This document shows, piece by piece, positions 11,227 through 49,664 of a stretch of DNA of 51,070 nt. The notes beneath the pieces are model-generated. The model saw only the letters and a program-made list of their open reading frames with translations, did no database searches and was not told where the DNA came from. The stretch is from an uncultured Gammaproteobacteria bacterium (GTDB lineage Bacteria; Patescibacteriota; Microgenomatia; UBA8517), in the NCBI GenBank assembly GCA_964396785.1, contig CAYNFU010000003.1, positions 1 to 51,070 of the forward strand, given 5' to 3'. A program made the translations under genes and the position numbers. Each line of letters begins with the position of its first letter. Position 1 is the first letter of the stretch.

Positions 11227-11931
11227 TTAGTTAACGGGTATTATTTTTGCCCTTACCACCAAGCGTTTTGGCTTAAGAGGGTGCCCGGGTGGGACACAAG
11301 TAATAAGAGAGATATATGAATTTGAAGAATCTTGTGTGAGAACATCGAGTTCGTCGGGTAGCACTTCAAATAAGTCAGTTACTTGATAATCATATCTTAC
11401 TCCGTCGTAACTTACCTCTACCCTGTCTCCTTTTTTGAGCGTGGGGAGTGTAGAAAAAATAGCCAAGTAATCTTTGGGGTTATAAAAAATGGGAAGGATT
11501 GAGTGACCAAAAATAACCGTATTTCCAATTTTACCAGGAAGGGCGGTGCCGGGGTATTGAATTAAGCTTTTAGCTAAATCCTCGCCGCCAATTGCAACGG
11601 TAGCATTTTCTATTCCCAATTTTGGAATTGAGATTGTATAGTAAGAAACCTTCGAGAGGACAAAATCCTCTTTGTTAGCTCCATCGGGAAACCAATTACT
11701 GGCCAGAGTTAAGTCGTACTCGGAGGAAAGATCCGGAAGTCTCTCGGACTCCGGAAGCGGAGAAATAAGTTTGGGATATTTTTCCCTGGCGTTTAATTCA
11801 TAAGAGGCTAATGGGTAGAGAGTATATGAAACAATTGCCATCCCCAAAAATCCCGATAATCCGGCCAAAATCCTAAAGATCGTATTTTTGCCCATGGGAG
11901 TAATTTTACTCGGCAGCAATTTCAACTTCAA
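11227..11931 (-). CDS. Sortase-family transpeptidase, membrane anchored
   Basis: N-terminal TM helix. Catalytic triad context is present: GNTVIFGHS (His), SLITCVPPG (the TLxTC-type Cys), and RLVVRA (Arg). A start at the internal Met (11895) would remove the 26-nt overlap with the upstream gene. Confidence 0.85.
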   Translation of the reverse strand: MKLKLLPSKITPMGKNTIFRILAGLSGFLGMAIVSYTLYPLASYELNAREKYPKLISPLPESERLPDLSSEYDLTLASNWFPDGANKEDFVLSKVSYYTISIPKLGIENATVAIGGEDLAKSLIQYPGTALPGKIGNTVIFGHSILPIFYNPKDYLAIFSTLPTLKKGDRVEVSYDGVRYDYQVTDLFEVLPDELDVLTQDSSNSYISLITCVPPGHPLKPKRLVVRAKIIPVN

Positions 11932-35174: not shown

Positions 35175-35735
35175 ATGGCTGCCCGAAAAAAACAATCTTT
35201 AATTAATCTTTTACCTTCTGAAGAGTTTGCTGGTTCAACAACTGGAAGAGCTCTAGCTTGGGCCCTATCTACATTTCGCTACATTGTTATTGTTACAGAA
35301 CTAGTAGTAATTTTGGCATTTATATCGAGATTTTGGCTCGACGCCCAAAACCAAAGCCTGAGAGAAGAAATAGAACAGAAACAAGCACTTATCGCGAGTT
35401 CTTCCGACTTTGAAAAAGAGTTTAAAGAAGTTCAAAAACGTCTTACCGTTTATAAAACCCTTACAAAAGACTCCCTTTCTTTCTCAAAAATATTCACAGA
35501 TATTTCAACTAATATCCCAGATGACGTCTTATTATCAACCATCACATTTTTTGAAACTGGATTAACTATTGAAGGTTTTTCGTCAAACGAAAGGAGTATC
35601 GTCCAACTTGCAGTCAACCTTGAGAAAAACGCCGGATATCCAGATACTTCTGTCGCCTCGGTAAGTACAAACAAGGAAGATCCTTCTCTTCTTGAATTTA
35701 GTCTTAATGTTGCTCTTCCAAAGGAGGGTATTTAA
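35175..35735 (+). CDS. pilN: PilN-like type IV pilus alignment protein
   Basis: N-terminal SLINLLPSEE (the conserved INLLP PilM-binding peptide), a single TM helix, a coiled coil, and a small alpha/beta domain. 186 aa. Confidence 0.75.
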   Translation: MAARKKQSLINLLPSEEFAGSTTGRALAWALSTFRYIVIVTELVVILAFISRFWLDAQNQSLREEIEQKQALIASSSDFEKEFKEVQKRLTVYKTLTKDSLSFSKIFTDISTNIPDDVLLSTITFFETGLTIEGFSSNERSIVQLAVNLEKNAGYPDTSVASVSTNKEDPSLLEFSLNVALPKEGI

Positions 35736-36386
35736 ATGGCTCTAGGTTGGAGATCAAATTATTTTCGTTACAAAACTTACTTCCTCAACGTTGTAGGTCA
35801 TTACCAAAAAAGAGACGACTTAAAAATGTTTATGGAATTTATGCTCTCTTTGGCGACTATTGCGATATTCGGCATATTTGCAATAAGACCTACACTTTTG
35901 ACTATAGCCGAGCTTTTAAAAGAAATTGAAGGCAAAAAACAAACCGTTAGCATCATGAATGAAAAAATAGAAAATCTAAATCAGGCCCAAGCACTCTATG
36001 AAGAAGTAAGACCCGACATAGACCTTCTTAAAATAGCGATACCCAAAAAGGGCGAGCCCGAGAATCTCGTCCGACAATTTGAGGGAGTAGTAAGTCAAAA
36101 TCCTATAAGCATTCTTTCGCTATCTCTCGGACAAGTAAACATTTTGGGTGAGAGTGTCCCAATCGGGGTAATCACAACGAACGAGCTTCCCGAAGGGGCC
36201 GAGGGATTAGCGTTTACGATAAGCTCAAGCTCCGACTACCCCTTGCTTTCTTCTTTTGTAAAATCTTTGGAAGGGTTAAGACGACCTTATAAACTCGATG
36301 CCTTATATATTAATACTGCGCTTACACTTGAAGGAGGTAAGCAATTGATTCTTGTCATTAATGCACACTCGCCGTATCTTAAATAA
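35736..36386 (+). CDS. pilO: PilO-like type IV pilus alignment protein
   Basis: Short cytoplasmic N-terminus, TM helix (LSLATIAIFGIFAI), coiled coil (LKEIEGKKQTVSIMNEKIENLNQAQALYEE), and a C-terminal globular domain. Starts immediately after the pilN stop. Confidence 0.6.
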   Translation: MALGWRSNYFRYKTYFLNVVGHYQKRDDLKMFMEFMLSLATIAIFGIFAIRPTLLTIAELLKEIEGKKQTVSIMNEKIENLNQAQALYEEVRPDIDLLKIAIPKKGEPENLVRQFEGVVSQNPISILSLSLGQVNILGESVPIGVITTNELPEGAEGLAFTISSSSDYPLLSSFVKSLEGLRRPYKLDALYINTALTLEGGKQLILVINAHSPYLK

Positions 36387-36392
36387 ATAGAC

Positions 36393-36743
36393 ATGAAGAG
36401 AAAAATGCCGGCTTTGGTTTCAACTGCAATACTTACCGTAATCACATTATTCATGTGGATAGCTTTTAGCGTCTATCGGGTACTCACTGAACAGCCACCA
36501 ATAAGTGTTCCTCCCGAGATACTTGAACCAATCTCCCCAACTCTTGATAAAGAGGCTCTTGCAACTTTATCGCAAAGGACATATTTTGAGGAGACAGATG
36601 TGCCAGAAACATTTGTAAATCAAGGCCCGCAAGTCACCCAGCAACTCTCCGTCCCGGAGGCTACTCCCGCGTCGACGATTTCACCTAGCCCAGCACCAGA
36701 AGCCACCGGCTCGGCAGAATTAACAGCAACACCGACACCATGA
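36393..36743 (+). CDS. Small membrane-anchored protein with a Pro/Thr/Ser-rich C-terminus (116 aa)
   Basis: N-terminal TM helix ALVSTAILTVITLFMWIAFSVY and the tail ..ATPASTISPSPAPEATGSAELTATPTP. ATGA overlap with the next gene. Confidence 0.6.
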   Translation: MKRKMPALVSTAILTVITLFMWIAFSVYRVLTEQPPISVPPEILEPISPTLDKEALATLSQRTYFEETDVPETFVNQGPQVTQQLSVPEATPASTISPSPAPEATGSAELTATPTP

Positions 36744-38125
36744 AAGGAAAAATACCTACAATCATAGTTTTAGTAATGCTTGTAATAGGTGTGGTGGTCG
36801 GGGTTTTTTTGGTAAGAAACCGGCAAATTTTTAGACTTGGGGCAAGTGGAGAGATTACCCCTAAGGACGTACGCGTGACCAATATTACCGAATCGTCCTT
36901 AACTGTTTCGTGGACAACCGACAACGAGACTTCGGGAGCGGTATCATTTGGAAAAAATGAGATGCTTGGGCAAACTCTATTAAGCGAAGTCGAAGGGCAA
37001 GCGACACTTCATTCGGCGGTTCTTACAGGGTTAGATCCCGAAAGTAGCTATTTTATTAACATAAATTCAAATGAAACGGAATTTGATAATAACGGGGTCT
37101 CTTGGCAGGTCTCAACGGGGCCGGTCCTTGAACCCACAACCGAAACGATTGTTATTTCAGGGAAGATTTTAGATACAGATGGAAATCCCGCCGGAGGAGT
37201 CCTGGTTTATGTAGCAATTGGAGGAGGAACTCCACTTTCAACCCTCACCTCCTCTGATGGAAATTGGGTTATCCCCATTTCTACCTCAAGAACTCTCGAT
37301 TTAACGTCATTCGTTTCAATTGACGAAGAAAACTCCTTGGCAGAAATCTCCGTCCAGGGAGGTATAGGCGGTATTGCATCAGCCCAGATTTACCCGATAT
37401 CGGCAAAACCTGCGCCCCCAATAACCCTGGGCCAGGTACACGATTTCCGAAATCTTCCCCCGTCAACTCCAGGGGAAACTCCTGGGGCAACAATTGAAAT
37501 ACCCGAAGGGGAGGAGCAAGAATCTGGTTTTGCAGTACCCGAAACCGCAACCGCTTCGGGTCAAACTGTAACTCTTGAGAGTGTAGATAGTGGCGAAGTG
37601 GTAGCAACAACCCAACCAGAATTTTTCGGGGAAGGACCTAAGGGTACTGTAATTACGGTAACACTCGAATCAGACCCAGTTATCGATCAAGTTACGGTCG
37701 GGACTGATGGAGAATGGAACTGGACACCACCCGAGGGTCTTTTACCTGGAACCCACAAAATTACACTTTCTTGGAGAGACGCCCAAGGAATATTAAGAGC
37801 GCTAACTCGAACTTTTGTCGTTCAAGCAGCAGAGGAACCTGCATTCACCGCAACCCCTTCGGCTTCACCAACTCCGAGGGCAACCTCAACTCCTACGCCG
37901 ACCCCCAAACCGACGGGATCTCCAACGCCAACGCCCAAAGTCACGGCGACGCCGTCTGCTACTCTTACACCAACCAAAAAGCCTACCCCCACGGCAACTG
38001 GCTCATCCCTCCCAGATGCCGGTAGTCCGGGAGGAACCCTGGCTCTGGTTCTTTTTGGAGTCTCACTCCTAACATTTAGCACTCTCTCCCTAGCCCTATC
38101 TTTCAAAAAAGAGAAAAGCGCATGA
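36740..38125 (+). CDS. Surface protein: N-terminal anchor/signal, FN3-like domain, CarboxypepD_reg-like domain, bacterial Ig-like domain, PT-rich stalk and an LPDAG sorting signal
   Basis: VRVTNITESSLTVSWTTD (FN3-like), ISGKILDTDGNPAGGVLVYV, TQPEFFGEGPKGTVITVT...GTDGEWNWTP..LLPGTHKITL (Ig-like), a PT-rich run, then LPDAGS + hydrophobic stretch + KKEKSA. Confidence 0.8.
   Translation: MKGKIPTIIVLVMLVIGVVVGVFLVRNRQIFRLGASGEITPKDVRVTNITESSLTVSWTTDNETSGAVSFGKNEMLGQTLLSEVEGQATLHSAVLTGLDPESSYFININSNETEFDNNGVSWQVSTGPVLEPTTETIVISGKILDTDGNPAGGVLVYVAIGGGTPLSTLTSSDGNWVIPISTSRTLDLTSFVSIDEENSLAEISVQGGIGGIASAQIYPISAKPAPPITLGQVHDFRNLPPSTPGETPGATIEIPEGEEQESGFAVPETATASGQTVTLESVDSGEVVATTQPEFFGEGPKGTVITVTLESDPVIDQVTVGTDGEWNWTPPEGLLPGTHKITLSWRDAQGILRALTRTFVVQAAEEPAFTATPSASPTPRATSTPTPTPKPTGSPTPTPKVTATPSATLTPTKKPTPTATGSSLPDAGSPGGTLALVLFGVSLLTFSTLSLALSFKKEKSA
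38009..38125 (+). other. C-terminal cell-wall sorting signal (LPDAG motif + TM helix + basic tail)
   Basis: LPDAG is encoded at 38009-38023, followed by SPGGTLALVLFGVSLLTFSTLSLALSF and KKEKSA. This is the tripartite architecture of sortase substrates. Confidence 0.7.
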
Positions 38126-38523
38126 ACGAAAACCTTAAACGAAGATTGCCAATAATTGGCGTTGCGGCTGCAACTATAGTTCTCGCTGGAATTGCAGTTT
38201 TTACGGCTACTAGAATCTTTCAATCAAGGGAGGAGAACATCTCCCCAATCGCGCCCGAGGAGGAGCTCGCCCAAGCTCCAACTTTCACTCCAACTCCCTT
38301 ACCTACCTCTACCCCTACAATAAACCTCTCGGGAACTCCCACTCCAACGAGAACTTTGACGCCAACTGCTTCTACCTCGGGAACCCTCACTCCAACAAAA
38401 AAATTGACGGCCACTCCGACCTCAGCCGAAACCCTTCCGGATGCTGGAATTTCATATCCCACTCTAGTTGGAGTATCTGTAGGGCTCGTCCTTCTAATTG
38501 CGGGAGTGCTCTTGGCCATTTAA
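38122..38523 (+). CDS. Small PT-rich surface protein with an LPDAG sorting signal (133 aa)
   Basis: N-terminal TM helix, a PT-rich stalk, and TLTPTKKLTATPTSAETLPDAGISYPTLVGVSVGLVLLIAGVLLAI. ATGA overlap with the upstream gene. Confidence 0.7.
   Translation: MNENLKRRLPIIGVAAATIVLAGIAVFTATRIFQSREENISPIAPEEELAQAPTFTPTPLPTSTPTINLSGTPTPTRTLTPTASTSGTLTPTKKLTATPTSAETLPDAGISYPTLVGVSVGLVLLIAGVLLAI
38434..38523 (+). other. Second LPDAG sorting signal (motif + hydrophobic helix, no basic tail)
   Basis: LPDAG is encoded at 38434-38448. The preceding TLTPTKK.T.T.T block is paralogous to the one in the 461-aa protein. Confidence 0.6.
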
Positions 38524-38569
38524 TCCTCAAAAAGTTATTTTTCCGCTATACTTTGATAGTTTAAAGTTA

Positions 38570-40198
38570 ATGAGAAAGTATCTTTCATTTCCCGAAATTC
38601 TTATATTTCTACCCATCCTCGCTTTTTCGTTACTTCTGATGTTCAAAACATTCCAGATTTCTCCCGATGGAAATTTAAAAATTGCAACTAAGGCCTGGAG
38701 TGATTTCGCCGCAACAATTCCACTTATTCGTTCATTCTCTTTGGGTGATAATTTTCCACCCGAATATCCTCTTTTTGCTGGACCACCGATTCGATACCAT
38801 TTCCTCTTTTTTTTATTTGTGGGATTTTTGGAGAGAATCGGCTTGAGACTCGATTGGGCTCTTAATATCCCTAGCGCAATTTCATTCTTCCTTTTAACTC
38901 TGGTTATTTATTTTTTGGGGGTAAAAGTTTTCAAAAAAAAGAGCATTGGAATACTATCCGTTGTTCTTTTTCTTTTTAATGGGTCATTCTCTTTTTTGGA
39001 ATTTCTAAAGACTCACCCTATCTCTCCTAATTTTGTAAATGAAATTACCAAGGCTACCCAATTTGCATCTTTCGGTCCCTATGACGGCAAAATTGTCTCC
39101 GCCTTTTGGAGTCTTAATATTTTTACCAATCAGAGACACCTGGCTTTAGCCTATGCGGCTTTCTTACTTTTGGTTTTTTTCCTTTATAGATTCACAGATG
39201 TAAATAAAAAATTTTCCATAAAAGTTGTTGTGCTACTTTCGCTACTCATTGGTCTTTTTCCTTTTATCCACCTTGCTGTCTTTGGAATGATGCTTATCGC
39301 ACTTGGAGTATTTTTCTTACTTTACCCAAAGGCAAGATATCAAATATTTCTAATCGGCCTTTTTTCGTTAGCCATTGCTCTCCCCCAAATCCTTTATATG
39401 GGTAAGTCTCAAATAACTGTAAAGTTTTTCGATCCCGGCTATTTGGTACAAAATCTAAACCTGGTCAATTTTATTAAATATTGGGTTTTGAATTTAGGTT
39501 TAGGAGTTTTCCTTGCCCCAATAGGATTTGCGCTTGTACCAAAGAAGATTAAGAAAATTTTCTTCCCATTCCTCACCCTTTTTGTCGTTGGAAATCTTTT
39601 TCGCTTCTCGCCGGAGGTCGCAGCAAATCACAAATTCTTCAACCTATTTTTAATCGGAGCAAATTTTTTTACAGCTTTTGCACTAGTGAGTATTTGGGAT
39701 AAAAAAATTGTTGGAAAAGTATTGGTAGCGAGTTCCATCTTCTTACTAACTTTCTCCGGAATTATCGATATATTCCCAATACTAAATGACGGCTACATTG
39801 AAATTTCTGACTATCGAAAAAATCAAACCTCCCAATTTATTATCAGAAATTCCACAAAGGATAGTCTGATATTAAATTCATCCTATCTTTACGACCCAGC
39901 CTCGCTTGCCGGAAGAAAAATATATTTGGGCTGGCCTTATTTTTCTTGGTCTGCCGGATACGATACAGACACGCGTTTTCAAATGCTAAGGTCCATCCTT
40001 GAAGCAAAAGACAAGAAAACTGCGTGCGCACTTCTGACTCAAGAGGGCATCGATTATATTGAAACTTCCGAACCAACATCTCTAGAAGGAGTGCAAGCAA
40101 ATTATTCTTTATTTGAGAAAAATTTCGAAAAAATATTTATCGATCCAAGACTGAAGCTCAATATATATGATGTAAAAGTATCTTGTGTAAAAAATTAA
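38570..40198 (+). CDS. Polytopic membrane protein, GT-C-fold glycosyltransferase-like (PMT/ArnT-type)
   Basis: About 12 predicted TM helices with a C-terminal soluble domain. The first-loop region is ..AWSDFAATIPLIRSFSLGDNFPPEYPLFAG... The start is set at ATG 38570 (MRKYLSF) to avoid overlapping the upstream gene. The family call is inferred from architecture. Confidence 0.5.
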   Translation: MRKYLSFPEILIFLPILAFSLLLMFKTFQISPDGNLKIATKAWSDFAATIPLIRSFSLGDNFPPEYPLFAGPPIRYHFLFFLFVGFLERIGLRLDWALNIPSAISFFLLTLVIYFLGVKVFKKKSIGILSVVLFLFNGSFSFLEFLKTHPISPNFVNEITKATQFASFGPYDGKIVSAFWSLNIFTNQRHLALAYAAFLLLVFFLYRFTDVNKKFSIKVVVLLSLLIGLFPFIHLAVFGMMLIALGVFFLLYPKARYQIFLIGLFSLAIALPQILYMGKSQITVKFFDPGYLVQNLNLVNFIKYWVLNLGLGVFLAPIGFALVPKKIKKIFFPFLTLFVVGNLFRFSPEVAANHKFFNLFLIGANFFTAFALVSIWDKKIVGKVLVASSIFLLTFSGIIDIFPILNDGYIEISDYRKNQTSQFIIRNSTKDSLILNSSYLYDPASLAGRKIYLGWPYFSWSAGYDTDTRFQMLRSILEAKDKKTACALLTQEGIDYIETSEPTSLEGVQANYSLFEKNFEKIFIDPRLKLNIYDVKVSCVKN

Positions 40199-40755
40199 GG
40201 AAAAATATTCTTTTTACTTATCCTAAATAGATCGGTAACGAAATTATAGACGCTCATTACAAATTTCCCGCGACTGGTGATTCTATAGCCCGACCCACTG
40301 TTAAAAATATTCCCTGAGACGGTCTGTTCGTCAAATCGTTTTCGAACACCTTCATGTTCATAAATGTATTTATCGATTAAAACTTTTGCCATTTCTTCTT
40401 CTGAGATTTCTCTATCCGAATTTTCGTTCATATATCCCAACAGAAAAGTGGAAACTGAACGCTCGGCAGTAACCGGAAGGTGGGTGAAAAAAACTAAGTT
40501 TAGACAAAAGATTAATACCGAGGACAGAAGTGCGTCAGAAAGAGAAAAAGTTTTGCCGCGAAGAGCAAAATTTATTCCCACCCCAACAAAAAAAGTAAAT
40601 AATGTGACAATGCTAAGAAAAATAATCCCTCGATAAAAAAGCACCGTAGTACTTTTTGCTAGTTCTGTCTGAAAAAGCAGAATAAAAAGGGCCGTACCTA
40701 ATACGAATAACTCGAGGTGTAAAAGAAATAACCAAAGACTTTTTTTGACATTCAT
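40195..40755 (-). CDS. Membrane protein of unknown function (186 aa; 4 TM helices plus a soluble C-terminus)
   Basis: Hydrophobic N-terminal two thirds. ATGA-type overlap with the upstream GT-C gene. Its stop overlaps the convergent gene's stop (TTAA). Confidence 0.55.
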   Translation of the reverse strand: MNVKKSLWLFLLHLELFVLGTALFILLFQTELAKSTTVLFYRGIIFLSIVTLFTFFVGVGINFALRGKTFSLSDALLSSVLIFCLNLVFFTHLPVTAERSVSTFLLGYMNENSDREISEEEMAKVLIDKYIYEHEGVRKRFDEQTVSGNIFNSGSGYRITSRGKFVMSVYNFVTDLFRISKKNIFP

Positions 40756-42764
40756 AACTTCTCTTTCGAGGACAGCATCTTTATATCTCGTTGGAAGGAT
40801 TTTATATTTTTGCTTGCTATCGTCAAGACGTATAAAGAAAAGTCTCTTCCATCTACACTCTTTGTAATTATTTCCTCTGAGCCATATTTTTTATATTTGC
40901 TAAATATCTCAATGACCGCTTCGCTCTTATCGGACACCTCCCATATCATCTTCAAATCTTTGTCCGAACTAACGTAATTAAGAATCGCTTTAAAATTATC
41001 CTCAAAAATTTCTTTTGGTGTTTTTAGAAGCTGTATACCCTGATTACAAAAAGAGAGAATCTTCTTATCGTCAAAGTCTTGTAAGAATAAGTGGGCAATA
41101 GCATAAGAACTATATGGACAAAATAGTGTGTCATATTGAGGCCTCGCCGAATCCATTTCCCTTCTAAATTCATCCTGTTTTATCTCATCCTTAATTGTTG
41201 TAATCCCGAGAACTCCCTTGGAGCTCTCTACTTCCTTTTTACGGATAGTACCAGCGACTATATCCTGTACTAAGCGTGAGATAGCGACGTCTTTATGAGG
41301 AAGTAGATATAAATAGTTCGGATTTTTTGAAATATTCCAGAGATAACTAATAGAAGGTATTAACCCCAAACCCGCCGCAGCCAAACCTATTACTAGATAA
41401 AGCTTTGAGGCAATTCTTTTTGAACTAAAAATATGATTTAGGCTAAAAGCCATGGCAATGACCCAGATGGGAACAGAAAGAAGCACCCTAAAATCGTAAG
41501 AGCCGGAAACCAATGCGCCAAGTGTGGGAATGATCGACAAGAATACTATCTCAAATCTTTTTTTTAACAGGGCAATGAATAAACCTGGAATAAGTAGTAA
41601 ATAATAGCCAAGCGGAATGATTGGAAAATCAGGTAAAAATTGTCTTTGAAATGTGTGTTTTGCGAAAAAAAGCTCAATTAGTCCATCGACGTAAGGCCTT
41701 ATCGCCCCAACTCCCCCGTTTAAAAAAAGTGAAAAAAACTCTCGTAAAAGCCCCTGCTCTCTAAGAACATATGCTTGGTAATTAAAGATTATATAAATGA
41801 GAAGCGGCGTCGCCGAAATAATAAAACCGGTAATCCATACAAGAGTAAAAGCGAGACCTTCTTTCAAACTTTCCTTTCGCTTTCTAAAAATTAAATAGGC
41901 CAAAAAAGATAAAGCTAGGCCCAGAATATACTGTTTCCCCATAATCGCACTACTTAAGCAAAGTGCGGCAAATAGCGCCGAAGTGGCTACTCTAAAAAGA
42001 GATTTATTGGAGAGTGCCGTATAAAGAAAATACAAAGAAACAACCATTAGGGGAGCGGCAATTGCATACCTATGGCCCATAAATATATGCATATAGTGAA
42101 GCGGGAAGAAATTGATGATTAAGGCAGACAAAAGCGTTACCCTCGTATCGTTGAAAATCCTATGAATGATAAATGTCGTAAAAAATACCGTTACAAAACC
42201 CAAAATAAGAAGTGAGAAATTAAAGACGGGAAGATTGTATCCGAATACTTTAAAAAGGCCTGAGATGTAATAATGAAAAACTACTTCGCGGCTTATTAAT
42301 CCCACCGAGTCAAAGAAGGCCGGTTGGAAGGGAGCCCCACTAAATACCTGATTTTTTGCAAAATAGATATCCCATGCAGCATCGTCAAAAAGTCCATTTT
42401 GGTTCCATGGGGCGGAAGATATATTCCACAGATGGGTTGTGAAATAAAGGAGAGTGACAAAGAGTCCAATAAATAGATCCCGCCTCTTTATTTTCCCCAA
42501 TATTTTCTTGATTGAGAAATTACGAGGTGCGAAAGAGTAAGAAAAAATTACAACAGCAATTACCCAGCTAATCCAGGACAGATTATTTCCAGGGAAAAGG
42601 ATCATGTAGTGTAAGGAGGAAGAGACTACTGAAAGGAGTAAAAAAACAATTGAGATCGGCAGTGCTTTTTTGTGGGTAATTTTAACCTTTAAATAGTTCG
42701 CTAGCTGCCTGAAATACATGATCATAATCTCAATTGGCTGCTTTAAGTCCCCATTGTATAGCAC
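40752..42764 (-). CDS. Polytopic membrane protein, GT-C-fold glycosyltransferase-like (GT39/GT83-type)
   Basis: More than 10 TM helices, an acidic first periplasmic loop NGLFDDAAWDIYFA (a DD/DE-type GT-C motif), and a C-terminal soluble domain. The start is uncertain: GTG at 42764, or ATG at 42725 or 42719. Confidence 0.55.
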   Translation of the reverse strand: MLYNGDLKQPIEIMIMYFRQLANYLKVKITHKKALPISIVFLLLSVVSSSLHYMILFPGNNLSWISWVIAVVIFSYSFAPRNFSIKKILGKIKRRDLFIGLFVTLLYFTTHLWNISSAPWNQNGLFDDAAWDIYFAKNQVFSGAPFQPAFFDSVGLISREVVFHYYISGLFKVFGYNLPVFNFSLLILGFVTVFFTTFIIHRIFNDTRVTLLSALIINFFPLHYMHIFMGHRYAIAAPLMVVSLYFLYTALSNKSLFRVATSALFAALCLSSAIMGKQYILGLALSFLAYLIFRKRKESLKEGLAFTLVWITGFIISATPLLIYIIFNYQAYVLREQGLLREFFSLFLNGGVGAIRPYVDGLIELFFAKHTFQRQFLPDFPIIPLGYYLLLIPGLFIALLKKRFEIVFLSIIPTLGALVSGSYDFRVLLSVPIWVIAMAFSLNHIFSSKRIASKLYLVIGLAAAGLGLIPSISYLWNISKNPNYLYLLPHKDVAISRLVQDIVAGTIRKKEVESSKGVLGITTIKDEIKQDEFRREMDSARPQYDTLFCPYSSYAIAHLFLQDFDDKKILSFCNQGIQLLKTPKEIFEDNFKAILNYVSSDKDLKMIWEVSDKSEAVIEIFSKYKKYGSEEIITKSVDGRDFSLYVLTIASKNIKSFQRDIKMLSSKEKL

Positions 42765-42814: not shown

Positions 42815-44845
42815 ATGCTAGCAGACATTCCTAGTATTTTTTACTGGTGGGTCATATTATTTTCTTTAGGACTATTTAGTTTTCCATTAACTTGGAGTCT
42901 CTTACGCAAATTTTTTGATTCTGGATACGGATTATCAAAAATCTTTGGAATAATAGTTCCTTCCTATTTAGTATTTCTCTTTTCAACTCTTCATATTCTC
43001 CCTTTGAACCAGCTTTTTATTTTTGGGATTTTCGCTATCTACATCATTCTAAACTTTATTATTTATGCGAAAAATAATACCGAAATCAAAGAGATATTTA
43101 GAAAAAAACTAAAGATTTTTCTTTTAGAAGAATTTCTTTTCATCGCAGGTCTTTTTGCTTGGAGTTATGTTCGAGCCCACCAACCTGATATTAGAGGGCT
43201 TGAAAAATTTATGGACTTTGGGTTTATTAACTCGATACTAAGAAGTGAATTCCTGCCACCCGCCGATATGTGGGCCGCAGGAAAAACTATTAACTACTAT
43301 TGGTTCGGGCATTTAATGACCGCGGTACTCACCAAACTCTCAGGAATTCCAGGGGCAATTACTTATAACCTCATGTTGGGAACTATTCTCGGGCTTACAC
43401 TTTCTTCCGCCTTTAGTATTGCCTCGTCCCTTTTGGCTAGTTCTTTCGGTAGTCAAAGGGTAAGGATAGTTATCGTCGGAGGAGTTTTATCTGCCCTTCT
43501 TTTGGGCCTAGGTGGAAATTTCCATGCTCCATATTATGTCCTAAAAAACGGGCACGAAAAATATTGGTATCCGGATGCAACCCGCTTTATCGGCTATAAC
43601 CCAGACACAAACGACAAAACAATTCATGAGTTCCCCAGTTACTCATTTATCGTATCTGACCTTCACGGGCACCTTTTGGATTTACCAGTGGTTCTAACAT
43701 TTCTTGCCCTTTTGACAAGTTTTATAGTGTTCTCAAAAGAAAAGGGAGAGAAATTATTAATCACATTGGGGTTGGGGATGCTTCTAGGAATAATGTTTAT
43801 GACCAATACTTGGGACTTTGGAATTTACCTTCTTGTAGCTGGGGTCACTATCGCAATTCATAACCTCGTCAAAAAGAAACTTTCTTGGGATTTTCTTTTC
43901 GAAACTTCAAAGAGGCTTCTTACCCTTTTAGTGGCCGGGTTATTTATCGCCATGCCATTTATCATTAATTTCTCCTCAATTGCCCAAGGAGTTGCTTTCG
44001 TAAATGCAAGAACCCCCATCTGGCAGCTTACAGTTCTCTGGGGATTCCCGATAGTTCTCACTATCTTTTTTATTTTTAAACTTGTAATTACAAGAAAAAT
44101 TGATTTATCTAAAATTTTTGTATTTTCACTACTTATCGCCGCCTGGATTTTGATATTCTTGCCTGAGTTTATTTTTGTAAAAGACATCTACATCGGATCT
44201 CACCATCGGGCAAATACAATGTTCAAGCTTACCTATCAAGGTTTTGTAATTTTCTACCTCGCCTCGGGTTATATTATCGTCTCAATCCTTTTGTCTATAA
44301 AGAAGTTCCTCTTAAAATTTTTAGCCGTTTTGGCTTCATCGATTGTTATCGCATCTATTCTTATTTATCCCTACTTCGGAATTAAATCCTTCTATGGGGA
44401 ACTTAAAAACTATAAAGGTCTAGATGGTGAGGCTTGGCTTGAAAGAGATTACCCAGGTCTATATTCAGCCATTTTATTCTTTAGGGAAAATACTTTTGGC
44501 CAACCGATAATTTTGGAGGCCGCGGGAGATAGCTATACGGACTTTAATGTTATATCGGCTTATTCCGGGCTTCCGACAGTTTCGGGTTGGTTCGTCCACG
44601 AATGGCTCTGGCGAGGTACTCCAGAATTCCCCCAGGCAAGAGCCAATGATGTAAGTCAAATTTACTTAACACAAAACCTCGAGGAGGCAAAAAATCTCCT
44701 ATCAAAATATAATGTTTCATATGTGGTTGTCGGAACTTTTGAAAGACAAAAATATCCTACGCTCAACGAGGAAAAATTTGAAAAAATTGGGAGGATGGTA
44801 TTTTCAAATTCGGGAGTAAATATCTACCAACTCAGTTACAATTAA
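42815..44845 (+). CDS. DUF2298 / Chlor_Arch_YYY-type polytopic membrane protein (putative GT-C glycosyltransferase)
   Basis: 676 aa, many TM helices. GKTINYYWFGHLM matches the YYY-motif region of this family. Has a C-terminal soluble domain. Confidence 0.6.
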   Translation: MLADIPSIFYWWVILFSLGLFSFPLTWSLLRKFFDSGYGLSKIFGIIVPSYLVFLFSTLHILPLNQLFIFGIFAIYIILNFIIYAKNNTEIKEIFRKKLKIFLLEEFLFIAGLFAWSYVRAHQPDIRGLEKFMDFGFINSILRSEFLPPADMWAAGKTINYYWFGHLMTAVLTKLSGIPGAITYNLMLGTILGLTLSSAFSIASSLLASSFGSQRVRIVIVGGVLSALLLGLGGNFHAPYYVLKNGHEKYWYPDATRFIGYNPDTNDKTIHEFPSYSFIVSDLHGHLLDLPVVLTFLALLTSFIVFSKEKGEKLLITLGLGMLLGIMFMTNTWDFGIYLLVAGVTIAIHNLVKKKLSWDFLFETSKRLLTLLVAGLFIAMPFIINFSSIAQGVAFVNARTPIWQLTVLWGFPIVLTIFFIFKLVITRKIDLSKIFVFSLLIAAWILIFLPEFIFVKDIYIGSHHRANTMFKLTYQGFVIFYLASGYIIVSILLSIKKFLLKFLAVLASSIVIASILIYPYFGIKSFYGELKNYKGLDGEAWLERDYPGLYSAILFFRENTFGQPIILEAAGDSYTDFNVISAYSGLPTVSGWFVHEWLWRGTPEFPQARANDVSQIYLTQNLEEAKNLLSKYNVSYVVVGTFERQKYPTLNEEKFEKIGRMVFSNSGVNIYQLSYN

Positions 44846-45938
44846 TCCCGGTAACTATGCAGTCAAACCAATTATGAATGTCCTCCCAGTCTCCGCTTTT
44901 GGGAATAAAGACATAAAGATTGTCATACCTTGGCGTTTCTGGAGGGTTTACCAAAAGCTCTTCCGGTAAAACGAAGGATTTCAAATTATCTTTTGATGAA
45001 AGTAGCCTTCTTGCTAAAATAGCAGAAGCTGAATCGGTAAGGTCAGTTTCTGTCGAAGTTCTTATTATTTTCCACAATTTTAAAAGTGTCTTTGGAGAAA
45101 GTAGGATTTTTCCTGAAAGAACTTTTTGGGAAGTTGCTAAAATTATCTTCTGTTGACGACGCGACCTGGCAAAATCTGTTCCTTCGTCTCCTTCCGCATT
45201 TCTCGAACGGGCAAATTTTAGGGAAGTCTCTCCATCCATAATCTGAAGTCCTTTTTCAAAATGAATAGTTTCATATCGACAAGCAAATTCAGGGTCTCCT
45301 CCACACTCGTCATTTTCTTTACCGACGATTGGGTATTTGTCGTCGCTAAAAGCTCTTTCAACTTCGACTTCGACTCCGCCCAAAGTATCAATAACTTCTT
45401 TAAAGGAAGAAAAATCGACAACAACTGCATATTGGATAGTCTCTCCGCTAATTTGTTCTATGGTAGACTTGGCCAAAATTATTCCACCCCCGCTTTGCTT
45501 TTGATTCCCCCAATAATAGACGCTATTTAGTTTGGTTCTAAGCTCAGGGATCCAAATATCCCTGGGAAGAGAAACTAGTTTTACCTCTGGGTCTTCCTTG
45601 GAAATAGATGCGAAGATTATGGTGTCGGTTAAGTCTGGAGCTTCGTGTCCTTCGCCACCTTTTCCTAAAATCAAAACGTTTGTTCGTCCATCCAAAATTT
45701 CAATCTTGTCCCTAGGTGTAAAAATAAAATCTCCACTAAGCTTCACAAATGAGCCAAAGGGAGTTTTCCCCAAGACAAACCCTACAAATAAAACTGCTAG
45801 ATAAAGACCCAATATGGAAAGCCCCAATATTCCACCTCTTACCGCCCAAGTGTATTTCAAAATTCTCCTTTTGATTCTTGAAATAACCACATTGGTTTTG
45901 TTTGGGGGCTTGGGTTGGGGAACGACCGGGTCTTCCAT
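44832..45938 (-). CDS. LytR-CpsA-Psr (LCP) family cell-wall glycopolymer ligase
   Basis: Cytoplasmic N-terminus, a TM helix, then NVLILGKGGEGHEAPDLTDTIIFASI, LVSLPRDIWIP, and FARSRNAEGDEGTDFARSRRQQ blocks typical of LCP. Confidence 0.88.
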   Translation of the reverse strand: MEDPVVPQPKPPNKTNVVISRIKRRILKYTWAVRGGILGLSILGLYLAVLFVGFVLGKTPFGSFVKLSGDFIFTPRDKIEILDGRTNVLILGKGGEGHEAPDLTDTIIFASISKEDPEVKLVSLPRDIWIPELRTKLNSVYYWGNQKQSGGGIILAKSTIEQISGETIQYAVVVDFSSFKEVIDTLGGVEVEVERAFSDDKYPIVGKENDECGGDPEFACRYETIHFEKGLQIMDGETSLKFARSRNAEGDEGTDFARSRRQQKIILATSQKVLSGKILLSPKTLLKLWKIIRTSTETDLTDSASAILARRLLSSKDNLKSFVLPEELLVNPPETPRYDNLYVFIPKSGDWEDIHNWFDCIVTGINCN

Positions 45939-45974: not shown

Positions 45975-47828
45975 ATGCCAAAAGGAAACAAGCTACTTAC
46001 CGGACTAAATAAAGAACAAGAAAAAGCCGTAACTTACTGCCACGGGCCTCTTTTGGTTTTAGCTGGAGCAGGAAGCGGAAAGACCAAAGTTTTGACCCAC
46101 AGGGTAGCCTATTTTCTCTATAAAAAATTTGTTCTACCAGAGCAAGTTCTACTTCTTACTTTCACAAATAAAGCGGCGGGGGAGATGAAAGAAAGGGTAG
46201 CGGCATTAACCGGGACGACCCCACCTTTTTCAGGAACCTTTCATTCCTTCTGTGCCAAGGTGTTAAGAATCGACGGAAAACATATTGGAATTGCCCCCAA
46301 TTTTCTAATTTATGACGGGGAAGACCAAAAGGATGCAATAAAGCAAATACTTAAGGAATTTAATATGTCGCTTGACTCATTCAGTCCCGCGGGAATCTTG
46401 GGGGAGATATCAGACGCCAAAAATCAAATGACATCAGTTAGGGGTTATAGTGAATTTGCCAAGGGTGATTGGCAAGAGGCAGTCTTTAAAGTTTGGGTCA
46501 AGTATGACGCTCTCCTAAAAGAAATGGGGGCGCTTGACTTTGACGACCTTCTAATAAAATGCGTTGAGCTTTTCGGTAAGGTCCCCGAAATTCTTGATAA
46601 ATGGCAGAAAAAACTAACACACGTCTTTGTGGATGAATGGCAGGACACAAACAAAATCCAGTATGCCCTTACAAAATTACTTGTTGGAAAAAGAAAAAAT
46701 ATAACTGCCGTTGGGGACGCTTCCCAATCAATATATTCCTGGCGTGGGGCTGACTTTCGAAATATCAATTATCTCATCCGTGACTTCCCCGATATAAAAA
46801 TCATAAACCTTGAGCAAAATTATCGCTCGACTCAAAACATTTTAGCCGCCGCAAACTCGGTAATCTCCAAAAATACCAGTCACCCAATCTTGAAGCTTTG
46901 GACGCAAAAAGGCGCTGGTGAAAAAATCAGGCTCTATTCTGCTAGAAACGGTTTGGATGAGGCAAGTTTTGTGGTAAATGAAATAATAGAATTAACAGGA
47001 AGCGGTTCTAACTTTTCCGACGTAGCAGTTTTATATAGAACCAATGCCCAGTCAAGAGTTTTGGAGGAGGCTCTTCTTCACTCTGGAATTCCTTACGTCT
47101 TAGTTGGAGGAGTCAGGTTCTACGGAAGGCGTGAAATTAAAGACGTTTTGTCATACCTCAGGCTTTTGGTTAACCCCAAAGACTCAGTATCTAAAAGAAG
47201 AATTGAGAAGTTGGGGGTAAGGCGTATTGAGAAATTCAACAGCCTAAAGGAGGATCTAAAAGATCTCGAAGGGACTACCACCCTCGATTTATTAGATGCG
47301 GTTTTAGAAAAAACGGGGTATCTCGAGCTTTACCAAAAAGAATCAGAAGAAAATTTAGCGCGTCTTGAAAACATCAAAGAACTTCGATCTGTCGCAACCG
47401 AATTTCCCAATATCAATGAATTTCTTGAAAACGTTGCTCTTGTCGAAGCAGAAGAATCAGTTAGTAAAAGAGAACTCGGTAAAAGCTCCAAAAAAGATGC
47501 CGTTACTTTAATGACATTACACGGAGCAAAAGGTCTTGAGTTTCCAGTTGTATTTATTGTTGGAATGGAAGAAGGGCTTTTCCCTCATTCCCGTTCTCTT
47601 TGGGACACGGGTCAGTTGGAAGAAGAAAGACGCCTCGCCTATGTTGGGATAACCAGGGCTAAAAATCTTTTGTATCTCTCCTATGCCACCCGCCGACTTT
47701 ATTTCGGAGAAAAACTCTCAAACCCTCCCTCAAGGTTTATAATTGACATTCCAGAGAGTCTCTTACGGGGGGTTGGGGGAGATAGCTTAGTAAAAAGTTT
47801 CGGAGAATTTGACGATATTAATTTTTAA
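45975..47828 (+). CDS. pcrA: ATP-dependent DNA helicase, UvrD/PcrA family
   Basis: LNKEQEKAV...GPLLVLAGAGSGKT, FVDEWQDTN, VGDASQSIYSWRGA, YRS, TLHGAKGLEF and YVGITRA motifs. The start is set at MPKGNK, matching the canonical N-terminus. Confidence 0.92.
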   Translation: MPKGNKLLTGLNKEQEKAVTYCHGPLLVLAGAGSGKTKVLTHRVAYFLYKKFVLPEQVLLLTFTNKAAGEMKERVAALTGTTPPFSGTFHSFCAKVLRIDGKHIGIAPNFLIYDGEDQKDAIKQILKEFNMSLDSFSPAGILGEISDAKNQMTSVRGYSEFAKGDWQEAVFKVWVKYDALLKEMGALDFDDLLIKCVELFGKVPEILDKWQKKLTHVFVDEWQDTNKIQYALTKLLVGKRKNITAVGDASQSIYSWRGADFRNINYLIRDFPDIKIINLEQNYRSTQNILAAANSVISKNTSHPILKLWTQKGAGEKIRLYSARNGLDEASFVVNEIIELTGSGSNFSDVAVLYRTNAQSRVLEEALLHSGIPYVLVGGVRFYGRREIKDVLSYLRLLVNPKDSVSKRRIEKLGVRRIEKFNSLKEDLKDLEGTTTLDLLDAVLEKTGYLELYQKESEENLARLENIKELRSVATEFPNINEFLENVALVEAEESVSKRELGKSSKKDAVTLMTLHGAKGLEFPVVFIVGMEEGLFPHSRSLWDTGQLEEERRLAYVGITRAKNLLYLSYATRRLYFGEKLSNPPSRFIIDIPESLLRGVGGDSLVKSFGEFDDINF

Positions 47829-47832
47829 AGAT

Positions 47833-48798
47833 ATGGATAAAAACTCTTTCAACAAAGCATCTTGCCACCCATTACAAACTTGGGAATGGGGAGAGTTTAG
47901 AAAAGCATGGGGAAACAAAGTTATAAGATTACCTTTCGGACAACTCACCCTCCACAGCCTTCCGCTTCTTCCTTATAAGATAGCCGCATTTGAAAAGGGG
48001 CCAGCTCCTACAAAAAATATGCTTAACGAATTAAAAAAACTCGCAAAAGAGGAGAATTTGATATTTATTAAACTCGAGCCCTCCGTTAGCGAAAACCTAG
48101 AAAAATTAAAGAATCTTCTTAGTGAGTACGGTGCTACAAAAGGAAAGACTCTTTTTACACCGACGACTTTTTGGATAGACCTGACAAAGTCCGAAGAGGA
48201 ACTTTTAAAAAGTTTTCATTCAAAAACCCGCTACAACATCCGACTCGCTCAGAAGAATGGAGTCGAAGTAGTTGAGGATAACTCTGAAGCCGCCTTTAAA
48301 AAATATCTCGAATTAACCAAGGAAACGGTTAAGCGTCAGGGATTTTACGCCCACAACAGGCGTTACCATGAGCTTATGTGGGAACACCTCCACCGAAAAC
48401 CTGTTTCCGAGGGAAAAGAACCGATAGCAAGACTTTTGACCGCTCGTTATAAAAGCCAAATAATTACCGCCTGGATAGTATTTGTCTGGAAAGACTTTCT
48501 TTATTACCCATATGGTGCTTCAACCGAAAAGCATAAAAATATCATGGCCAATAATTTAATGATGTGGGAGGCAATACGTTTTGGGAAATCCTTGGGACTT
48601 AAGACTTTTGACCTTTGGGGACGCGAAGAAGGAAAAGGATTTACAAAGTTTAAGGAAGGCTACGGTCCCCAAGTTGTAGAGTTTTTAGGAACTTGGGATT
48701 TGCCTACCAGTCCTTTTTATTGGCCGTATAGGATTCTGGAATCTCTGCGCTGGATATTACTTCGGGCCAAAAGTAAATTTTCTAAGCCTTCATTTTGA
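47833..48798 (+). CDS. FemAB-family peptidoglycan peptide-bridge aminoacyltransferase
   Basis: PLQTWEWGEFR, KTRYNIRLAQKNGVEV, LLTARY...ITAWIVFVW, YYPYGAS, and FDLWG blocks are typical of FemX/FemAB (tRNA-dependent transferases). The start is set at ATG 47833, after the pcrA stop. Confidence 0.8.
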   Translation: MDKNSFNKASCHPLQTWEWGEFRKAWGNKVIRLPFGQLTLHSLPLLPYKIAAFEKGPAPTKNMLNELKKLAKEENLIFIKLEPSVSENLEKLKNLLSEYGATKGKTLFTPTTFWIDLTKSEEELLKSFHSKTRYNIRLAQKNGVEVVEDNSEAAFKKYLELTKETVKRQGFYAHNRRYHELMWEHLHRKPVSEGKEPIARLLTARYKSQIITAWIVFVWKDFLYYPYGASTEKHKNIMANNLMMWEAIRFGKSLGLKTFDLWGREEGKGFTKFKEGYGPQVVEFLGTWDLPTSPFYWPYRILESLRWILLRAKSKFSKPSF

Positions 48799-49664
48799 TG
48801 GTCGATATTAGACAAACCAGTGAGTATGCAAGGTATCTTTCAAAAATCGGGTGGGAAGTTGAAAGAATCGCGGGGGTTAACTATTTCATAAAAAAAATTC
48901 CCCTGATTGGTTCTGTATTAAAAGTCCAAAGACCGGAAGAAATCCGAATTAATAAAATTAATGATTTGGCAAAAAAATATCGAGCCTTTCAAATCATCGT
49001 TGAACCGAAGAAAGAACTCGATGCAAAATTTTTAACGTCGGACGGGTTTAAATTAAGTAAGTCCCCATACCTTCCCACAAAAACGTTATTTTTGGACCTT
49101 GGCAAAAGCGAGAAAGCTCTTCTTGCAGGATTCAAAAAGGATGCGAGGGCGGCAATAATCCACCATGAAGAAGTTGTAAAAAGTGAGGCTAAAAGGGTGA
49201 TTAATAGTGGTAAAAACTTAGAAAGTACTATAGGACCCTTCCGGGATGCATGGAAGAATTCTGTGGGGCTAAAAAGGTACATCCCTCCCCTATCTCATTT
49301 ACTTGTCCTAAAAGGGTCCTTTAAAGATAACTCTCTTTTTATTACGACTGCTGAAAAAAATGCCGGGGCCATTTTTTTGATAGGAGAGGGAGTCGCCTAC
49401 TACTGGCAGGCATTCACAAATAAGGAAGGAAGGCGCAGCTTAGCGCAATATAAAATTGTCTGGGAGGGAATAAAATGGGCGAAGGGCCGTGGGGCAAAAG
49501 TTTTTGATTTTGAGGGAATTTATGACGAGCGTTTTGCCAATAAATCTTGGCTTGGGTTCACCCACTTCAAAAAATCTTTTGGGGGTTACGAAGTAACTTA
49601 TCCTGGATGCTTCACAAAGGTAATGTTACCTATTCGACTACTTCCCAACCCTACAAAAAAGTGA
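48795..49664 (+). CDS. Second, more divergent FemAB-like acyl/aminoacyl-transferase
   Basis: IRQTSEYARYL...GW, YYWQAFT, FDFEGI and FTHFKKSFGG parallel the FemAB blocks. ATGA overlap with the upstream paralogue. Confidence 0.6.
   Translation: MMVDIRQTSEYARYLSKIGWEVERIAGVNYFIKKIPLIGSVLKVQRPEEIRINKINDLAKKYRAFQIIVEPKKELDAKFLTSDGFKLSKSPYLPTKTLFLDLGKSEKALLAGFKKDARAAIIHHEEVVKSEAKRVINSGKNLESTIGPFRDAWKNSVGLKRYIPPLSHLLVLKGSFKDNSLFITTAEKNAGAIFLIGEGVAYYWQAFTNKEGRRSLAQYKIVWEGIKWAKGRGAKVFDFEGIYDERFANKSWLGFTHFKKSFGGYEVTYPGCFTKVMLPIRLLPNPTKK

Follow-up and report, generated by a model that had tools for sequence, protein, structure and literature searches.

What kind of sorting signal ends two adjacent surface proteins in an uncultured, Woesebacteria-like member of the Patescibacteria, the candidate phyla radiation (CPR)? 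The question is raised by a 51,070-nucleotide (nt) stretch of DNA, hereafter the window, covering positions 1 to 51,070 of the forward strand of contig CAYNFU010000003.1 (assembly GCA_964396785.1; Microgenomatia, UBA8517). Two consecutive genes in the window encode proteins of 461 and 133 amino acids (aa) that both end in the pentapeptide LPDAG followed by a hydrophobic helix. An original prediction, made from the letters of the window, read these tails as sortase-substrate signals in which Ala takes the place of the usual Thr. From sequence comparisons, we propose that the LPDAG-plus-helix tail is likely a variant, found across the lineage, of the LPXTG signal by which Gram-positive bacteria anchor proteins to the wall, with the 461-aa and 133-aa proteins as likely clients of a sortase encoded in the same window.

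Two adjacent proteins with LPDAG tails

Both open reading frames (ORFs) exist as originally described, and a hydrophobic N-terminal helix is predicted in each, as had been claimed. Their parts are the following, types 1 and 2 being the two classes of tail that are distinguished in the next section:

36740..38125, plus strand: 461-aa surface protein, with N-terminal helix, Fn3/Pur_ac_phosph_N, CarboxypepD_reg-like and Big_13 domains, Thr/Pro linker and type 1 tail (ORF list, Pfam).
38009..38023, plus strand: LPDAG pentapeptide of the 461-aa protein (residues 424-428).
38036..38122, plus strand: C-terminal hydrophobic helix of the 461-aa protein (residues 433-455), then the basic tail KKEKSA.
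38122..38523, plus strand: 133-aa protein, with conserved N-terminal helix, Thr/Pro linker and type 2 tail (ORF list).
38434..38520, plus strand: type 2 tail of the 133-aa protein, LPDAG-ISYPT-LVGVSVGLVLLIAGVLLAI, 29 residues to the C-terminus, without basic residues.

The two genes overlap by 4 nt (ATGA). The 461-aa protein ends in ..TLTPTKKPTPTATGSSLPDAGSPGGTLALVLFGVSLLTFSTLSLALSFKKEKSA and the 133-aa protein in ..TLTPTKKLTATPTSAETLPDAGISYPTLVGVSVGLVLLIAGVLLAI. A hydrophobic segment of 19-23 residues sets in 4-5 residues past the Gly in both, and the N-terminal helix follows Lys/Arg residues in both; the basic C-terminal tail, on the other hand, is present in the 461-aa protein and missing from the 133-aa protein. 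Position 4 of the pentapeptide is Ala in each, not Thr, which leaves the two proteins outside a strict LPXTG definition. Among the approximately 45 predicted genes of the window, these two are the only ones encoding a C-terminal hydrophobic segment.

A chance resemblance, or an annotation artefact in low-complexity Thr/Pro-rich sequence, is conceivable because such DNA yields long antisense ORFs, which public callers sometimes pick over the real gene. Conservation refutes this explanation, and we give it practically no weight: motif, spacing and end position are the same throughout hundreds of homologues and in 63 species. Chance is further excluded because LPDAG occurs at two sites only in the six-frame translation of the window, both at the tails of the two proteins. 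Nor are the two tails recent copies of one another, since their DNA is approximately 70% identical, with synonymous differences; a recent duplication or gene conversion was ruled out on these grounds and by the lack of a long direct repeat.

The original prediction had also extended the signal upstream of the pentapeptide. The stretch TLTPTKK is indeed common to the two proteins and to their nearest relatives (P0002-P0012, P0244, P0246, L001, L013), but it is absent across the wider families. Therefore, we regard it as a linker feature specific to this clade and have discarded it as part of the signal.

Three side observations concern these genes. Long antisense ORFs run across both Thr/Pro-rich tail-protein genes of the window. 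Public gene calls place an antisense ORF at or near the plus-strand small LPxAG gene in related loci (L001 11358-11883; L002 11344-13328), and the small LPxAG family is thus under-annotated. Lastly, the tail-bearing families have in common an Arg/Gln-rich stretch straight after the N-terminal helix (RLYQLRQ, RNRQIFRLGA, RRSQDIRRKAA), seen in the N-termini of P0001-P0120 and P0241-P0502 and in the window at 36740-36850 and 38122-38230. It may represent a matching type of N-terminal signal, loosely reminiscent of the YSIRK signal peptides of LPXTG proteins.

Two classes of tail in the Microgenomates

Homologues of the 461-aa protein, the 133-aa protein and the sortase belong to Patescibacteria, mostly Candidatus Woesebacteria and Microgenomates, the closest species representative being Woesebacteria RBG_16_42_24. 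The two tails had been taken as one signal; the homologues separate them instead into two conserved classes, which are set apart by the basic tail, by how far the length is constrained and by whether Thr is tolerated.

Type 1 is the tail of the 461-aa family, which has 553 homologues in Patescibacteria; residue counts refer to the 120 listed, 113 of which were parsed for helix and tail. Judging by the alignment, the signal would read xPx[T/S/A]G, helix, basic tail. The pentapeptide Gly never varies and Pro is found in 103/120; L, I, V or T stands at position 1 and D, E or V at position 3. After the motif come s-L-T-P-T and the helix, with basic residues after the helix in 108/113; type 1 tails contain the complete classical set of motif, helix and basic tail. 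Position 4 is A or S in the nearest relatives of the window protein and mixed in the family: a species-level sample of 38 genomes gave T 20, S 13 and A 4, which places the Ala of the window on a continuum with canonical LPXTG. Fully canonical tails (LPETG, LPATG, LPITG) occur among the orthologues, and about half of the species' orthologues read xPxTG.

The description of the pentapeptide as non-canonical holds as far as the Ala at position 4 of both proteins is concerned, but precedent exists. LPX(A/S)G is a documented occasional variant of LPXTG, accepted as a sortase motif in Staphylococcus aureus, Streptococcus uberis and Staphylococcus haemolyticus, and the laboratory-evolved SrtA 4S-9 works on LPEXG in which X is A, C or S (PMC9126251). 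The LPxAG pentapeptide is already known and not new.

Type 2 is the tail of the 133-aa family, with 380 matches, 120 of which were listed and counted. Sequence comparison points to a signal that consists of LPx[A/S]G, covers 29 residues counted from Leu to the end of the protein and has no basic tail. Whether LPDAG is kept in orthologues, a check that accompanied the original prediction, can be answered for this family in terms of the general pattern: LPx[A/S]G is found in 118/120 members, as LPEAG in 43 and as LPDAG in 37. Leu, Pro and Gly are near-invariant, while position 4 holds A or S, V in a few cases and T not once; in a species sample of 62 type 2 genes, it was A in 33, S in 25, V in 4 and T in none. 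The protein ends exactly 24 residues past the Gly (29 aa from Leu) in 117/118 members. A conserved x-S-x-P-T follows the Gly, a G-x-G-x-G pattern is conserved inside the helix, and the N-terminal helix of the family is very strongly conserved.

A profile of the type 2 tail (31 columns) was searched against 1.84 billion cluster representatives at E<=0.001 and matched 244 of them, every match listed ending at the last residue of the protein. Thr occupied position 4 in one of 142 new representatives. The carriers comprise the small linker family, some members of which have Cys-rich or other inserts, cohesin-domain proteins (P0362, P0496), several proteins of no known family and P0424, itself a member of the Fn3/Big_13 family, with type 2 in place of type 1. 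No informative name was attached to any of ten clusters of other tail-bearing proteins. A fixed C-terminal element common to unrelated ectodomains argues for a modular sorting domain read by dedicated machinery.

The cohesin-domain carriers bring to mind the sortase-anchored cohesin scaffoldins of cellulosome-producing Firmicutes, e.g., ScaE of Ruminococcus flavefaciens. The resemblance lies in cohesin-domain proteins bearing an anchoring tail, here of type 2. The differences are that the present proteins are from Patescibacteria and have LPx[A/S]G without basic residues. As a side observation, a complete 802-kb genome (CP055308.1; L076 5335-11278), in which the local gene order matches that of Microgenomates loci, has a cohesin gene and a gene for a 1132-aa dockerin protein adjoining a tail-bearing protein. 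Together with P0362 and P0496, it hints at a wall-anchored cohesin-dockerin surface system.

The sortase and the weighing of explanations

A sortase had been claimed at 11227-11931, and it is found there together with a conserved neighbour:

11227..11931, minus strand: membrane-anchored sortase, likely true start 11895 (Pfam, NCBIfam, alignment, PDB sequence search, fold search).
11906-14134, minus strand: 742-aa protein directly upstream of the sortase, one central helix, no family (weak Baseplate_J match).

The sortase ORF scores 83.5 bits on PF04203 (cut-off 26.6) and 54.9 bits on TIGR01076 (cut-off 39.35). Its His (FGHS), Cys (LITC) and Arg (KRLVVRA) are kept without exception in 30 homologues. 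Met13 is probably the real start, given that homologues have a length of 222-230 aa. The order alaS, ~740-aa protein, sortase, ruvX, yceG and rpoB is conserved, and in all Woesebacteria loci that were examined, a gene for a single-helix protein of 690-740 aa immediately precedes the sortase; the 742-aa protein may be a functional partner of the enzyme. This sortase family is reported to occur in nearly all Microgenomates (PMC6744442). In the window, approximately 25 kb separate the sortase from the tail genes, as is also the case in GCA_035256625.1, and at least four other assemblies have sortase and Fn3 protein together on long contigs.

The class of the enzyme, which the original prediction had proposed to settle, could not be assigned with the NCBIfam models for classes A-F. 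No class-specific cut-off was reached: the scores were 51.7 vs 160 for class C, 39.1 vs 160 for class E, 37.9 vs 140 for SrtD, 36 vs 165 for class D and 27.2 vs 166 for class F, with no class A or B match. An assignment by structure was dropped, the model being of moderate quality (predicted local distance difference test, pLDDT, 69.6) and its structural neighbours of mixed class (D, C, A and E). Mapping of the specificity residues of S. aureus SrtA (104, 118, 182) was likewise dropped, the alignment being too distant. The residue two before the Cys is Val in 22/30 and Ile in 8/30 homologues, which is not diagnostic of specificity. The enzyme resembles classes A-F in its sortase fold, its His/Cys/Arg, its TLxTC-like LITC and its N-terminal membrane anchor. 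It differs from them in falling short of every class cut-off, in the upstream gene of its possible partner and in an element, D-x-T-x-A-S-N-W-F, which is invariant in the family alignment approximately 20 residues ahead of the catalytic domain. This element might act as a class C-like lid, in a part of the model where confidence is low. With the evolved SrtA 4S-9 the window sortase would have in common the implied preference for Ala/Ser before the scissile bond; 4S-9, on the other hand, is an evolved class A sortase, whereas the one in the window would be natural and very distant.

The tails themselves were compared with curated models from Pfam 2025 and NCBIfam 20.0. The LPXTG anchor (TIGR01167 / PF00746, cut-offs 15.9 and 20) is the sole curated sorting model that recurs across the tails, and it lines up with them at the LP motif. 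On PF00746 the 133-aa tail reaches 14.0; neither TIGR01167 nor PF00746 matches the 461-aa tail, and an orthologous LPETG tail comes to 15.4 vs the cut-off of 15.9; an unrelated Woesebacteria LPDTG protein (L016) passes the LPXTG model with 19.9.

A different sorting enzyme could also read such tails, i.e., an exosortase/archaeosortase-like or rhomboid-like protease, as in the PEP-CTERM/VPDSG-CTERM and GlyGly-CTERM systems. Both designs place a short motif ahead of a C-terminal helix, 13 of the listed type 1 orthologues read exactly VPDSG, and [DE][SA]G is better kept than LP in many orthologues. A candidate enzyme could be sought in the next gene:

38498-40198, plus strand: 566-aa polytopic membrane protein of no known family, directly downstream of the 133-aa gene.

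This protein was rejected as a dedicated sorting enzyme, having no family match and being adjacent in just 11/63 species; it was also rejected as a GT-C paralogue, having no similarity to the PMT_2 protein of the window. The VPDSG-CTERM models score a VPDSG orthologue far under their cut-offs (TIGR03778 6.8 vs 22; PF18205 9.8 vs 25) and do not match the two tails of the window at all. Exosortase and other sorting-enzyme models found nothing, even at E<=10, among the window membrane proteins near the tail genes, and the lineage has envelope genes of Gram-positive type. Considering also that half of the orthologues carry xPxTG, we regard a different sorting enzyme as very improbable.

Sortase processing with a relaxed residue is the best supported explanation because the LPXTG models match in register, position 4 forms a T/S/A continuum, no other sorting enzyme was matched among the membrane proteins near the tail genes and precedent exists for the variant. 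The architecture proposed originally, that of sortase substrates, is thus retained: the tails resemble LPXTG-anchor models alone, xPxTG is present in the family and a sortase is encoded in the window. The motif, its conservation, its modularity and a sortase with its catalytic residues are all present in the data. On balance, we find it probable that both tail proteins are sortase-anchored wall proteins in which the position before the scissile bond has been relaxed to Thr/Ser/Ala.

Export, cleavage site, acceptor and final location are what we infer from this. The N-terminal hydrophobic segment would direct the export of both proteins and the C-terminal helix would keep them in the membrane, where the housekeeping-type sortase would process them. 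By analogy with characterised sortases, the active-site Cys would attack the Ala-Gly bond of LPDAG and the C-terminal helix would be let go. The acyl-enzyme thioester would then be resolved by an amine of a peptidoglycan precursor, either in a cross-bridge, as made by the nearby FemAB-family enzymes, or in the stem peptide, leaving the protein covalently bound to the wall. Woesebacteria/Microgenomates would use two classes of signal, one classical with a basic tail, the other compact, of fixed length, Thr-free and without basic tail.

Several observations weigh against this proposal. Among 63 species, none has a sortase ORF within 10 kb of the small gene; adjacency was therefore dropped as evidence, and the link between sortase and tails rests on the motif and on co-occurrence in the lineage. 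Family tails score 9.9-14.3 bits on the LPXTG anchor models, below both cut-offs, and Pro at position 2 is missing in 17/120 type 1 orthologues (e.g., VADSG, LIDAG). In S. aureus, the basic tail is needed for holding precursors for the sortase, and the type 2 tail has none: the last 8 aa are without a basic residue in 119/120 members of the 133-aa family. Besides, 19 genomes combine a type 1 tail that has Thr with a type 2 tail that lacks it. The absence of Thr from type 2 tails, even beside Thr-bearing type 1 tails, hints that the two are handled differently.

These features of type 2 allow for another explanation, namely that its tail is uncleaved and works as a permanent C-terminal anchor, leaving both ends of the 133-aa protein in the membrane. 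The LPxAG-x-S-x-PT and Gly patterns would then serve helix packing or the binding of a partner, e.g., the PilN/PilO-like proteins encoded upstream. The lack of a basic tail, which extends to 62/62 species, the fixed length with G-x-G-x-G in the helix, the exclusion of Thr and an N-terminal helix conserved more strongly than in an ordinary cleaved signal peptide are all compatible with it. A mere anchor, on the other hand, would not be expected to behave as a sorting domain, and the same tail occurs on unrelated ectodomains, at the extreme C-terminus in all those listed. Leu, Pro and Gly of a pentapeptide that would be extracellular are near-invariant, the exchange of type 1 for type 2 in P0424 suggests functional equivalence, and the LPXTG anchor is the one sorting model recurring across the tails. 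We therefore hold a permanent anchor to be unlikely.

With a similarly low probability, the type 2 tail could belong to a sorting pathway of its own in Microgenomates, defined by LPx[A/S]G, the exclusion of Thr, the 24 residues after Gly and the missing basic tail. Under such a pathway, the N-terminal helix is too conserved for a disposable signal peptide. If true, the small protein might be a sortase-made tether, with its N-terminus in the membrane and its C-terminus fixed to the wall or to another acceptor, e.g., the Fn3 protein. Membrane, wall and PilN/PilO-like machinery would in this way be physically joined in an organism without outer membrane, and it would imply a natural sortase tuned for Ala/Ser at the cleavage site.

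Compared with the LPXTG signal of other bacteria, the one proposed here is alike in its N-terminal export segment, its C-terminal L-P-x-x-G, its helix and the sortase in the genome, as well as in the basic tail of the 461-aa protein. It differs in that Ala/Ser is dominant across the lineage, a rare exception in Firmicutes; the window tails fall under the curated cut-offs and the host belongs to the Patescibacteria, not to Firmicutes or Actinobacteria. Type 2 departs further, lacking a basic tail, having 24 residues after Gly and x-S-x-P-T, and excluding Thr. A search of the literature found nothing specific on LPDAG, LPEAG or CPR sortase substrates. The prevalence of Ala/Ser at position 4 in a whole CPR lineage (Microgenomates), the compact type 2 signal without tail and Thr, and the association of the carriers with a conserved pilN/pilO envelope cluster each appear to be new, no description having been found in curated models or searchable literature.

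Envelope gene cluster and significance

The tail genes belong to a conserved envelope gene cluster. In dozens of species the order is MurJ, rpsT, pilN, pilO-like, a gene for a ~110-aa protein, Fn3 protein, a variable gene in some cases, small protein, LCP, UvrD and two FemAB genes. In the window, the members and neighbours of this cluster are the following:

35175-35735, plus strand: PilN-like protein, INLLP motif, Pfam PilN.
35736-36386, plus strand: PilO-like protein, faint PilO match in homologues.
36393-36743, plus strand: 116-aa single-helix protein.
40752-42764, minus strand, and 42815-44845, plus strand: large polytopic membrane proteins flanking the surface genes (PMT_2, DUF2298).
44832..45938, minus strand: LytR_cpsA_psr (LCP) wall-polymer ligase family, Pfam 108.1 bits, syntenic in 45 species.
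47809..49664, plus strand: two FemAB-family genes, Pfam FemAB 91.5 and 34.8 bits, syntenic in 24 and 20 species.

The PilN-like, PilO-like and 116-aa proteins have homologues in 54/63 species loci, compared with 47 for the Fn3 protein and 45 for LCP. Because MurJ, LCP, FemAB and YceG are encoded in the same conserved region, a peptidoglycan wall is to be expected. The FemAB genes would by family encode peptidoglycan cross-bridge peptidyltransferases, which suggests the cross-bridge as a candidate acceptor for the sortase. The three flanking polytopic proteins suggest O-glycosylation of the Thr/Pro linkers.

Other observations concern the surroundings of the cluster. The gene rpsT is directly upstream of the PilN-like gene, and pilM and other type IV pilus genes are absent from the window; in other systems, the INLLP motif of PilN binds PilM. 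At least 12 species encode a conserved membrane protein of ~95 aa ('YPFDKFFPKSG..' then helix) directly 3' of the small gene (e.g., L017 10548-10835, L038 10589-10876, L049 10605-10892), and the N-terminus of the 566-aa ORF of the window (..WPFNPQKVIFP..) is faintly like it. This Patescibacteria gene order is shown by many GTDB representative contigs that bear the title 'uncultured Gammaproteobacteria bacterium' and by one that bears 'Alphaproteobacteria bacterium' (loci L014, L018, L020-L023 and others); such record titles look wrong. From 1 to 34000, the window has a negative GC (guanine-cytosine) skew throughout (-0.05 to -0.22) with all genes on the minus strand, the skew being mostly near zero past 35 kb; strand composition disparity was reported in some Microgenomates (PMC7143001).

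Taken together, these results name candidate substrates for the sortase of Microgenomates, reported to be near-ubiquitous there (PMC6744442), among them Fn3/Ig-like, small linker and cohesin-domain proteins; no description of its substrates was found in the searchable literature. The signal would have moved away from LPXTG towards LPx[T/S/A]G, and a second, compact class escapes the curated models. For annotation, the present LPXTG models under-call these proteins, and the antisense strand of their Thr/Pro-rich genes is sometimes called instead. For protein engineering, a natural sortase accepting Ala/Ser before the scissile bond would be a possible tool for orthogonal protein ligation. For cell biology, the tails may offer a handle on the surface of these uncultured, probably host-attached bacteria.

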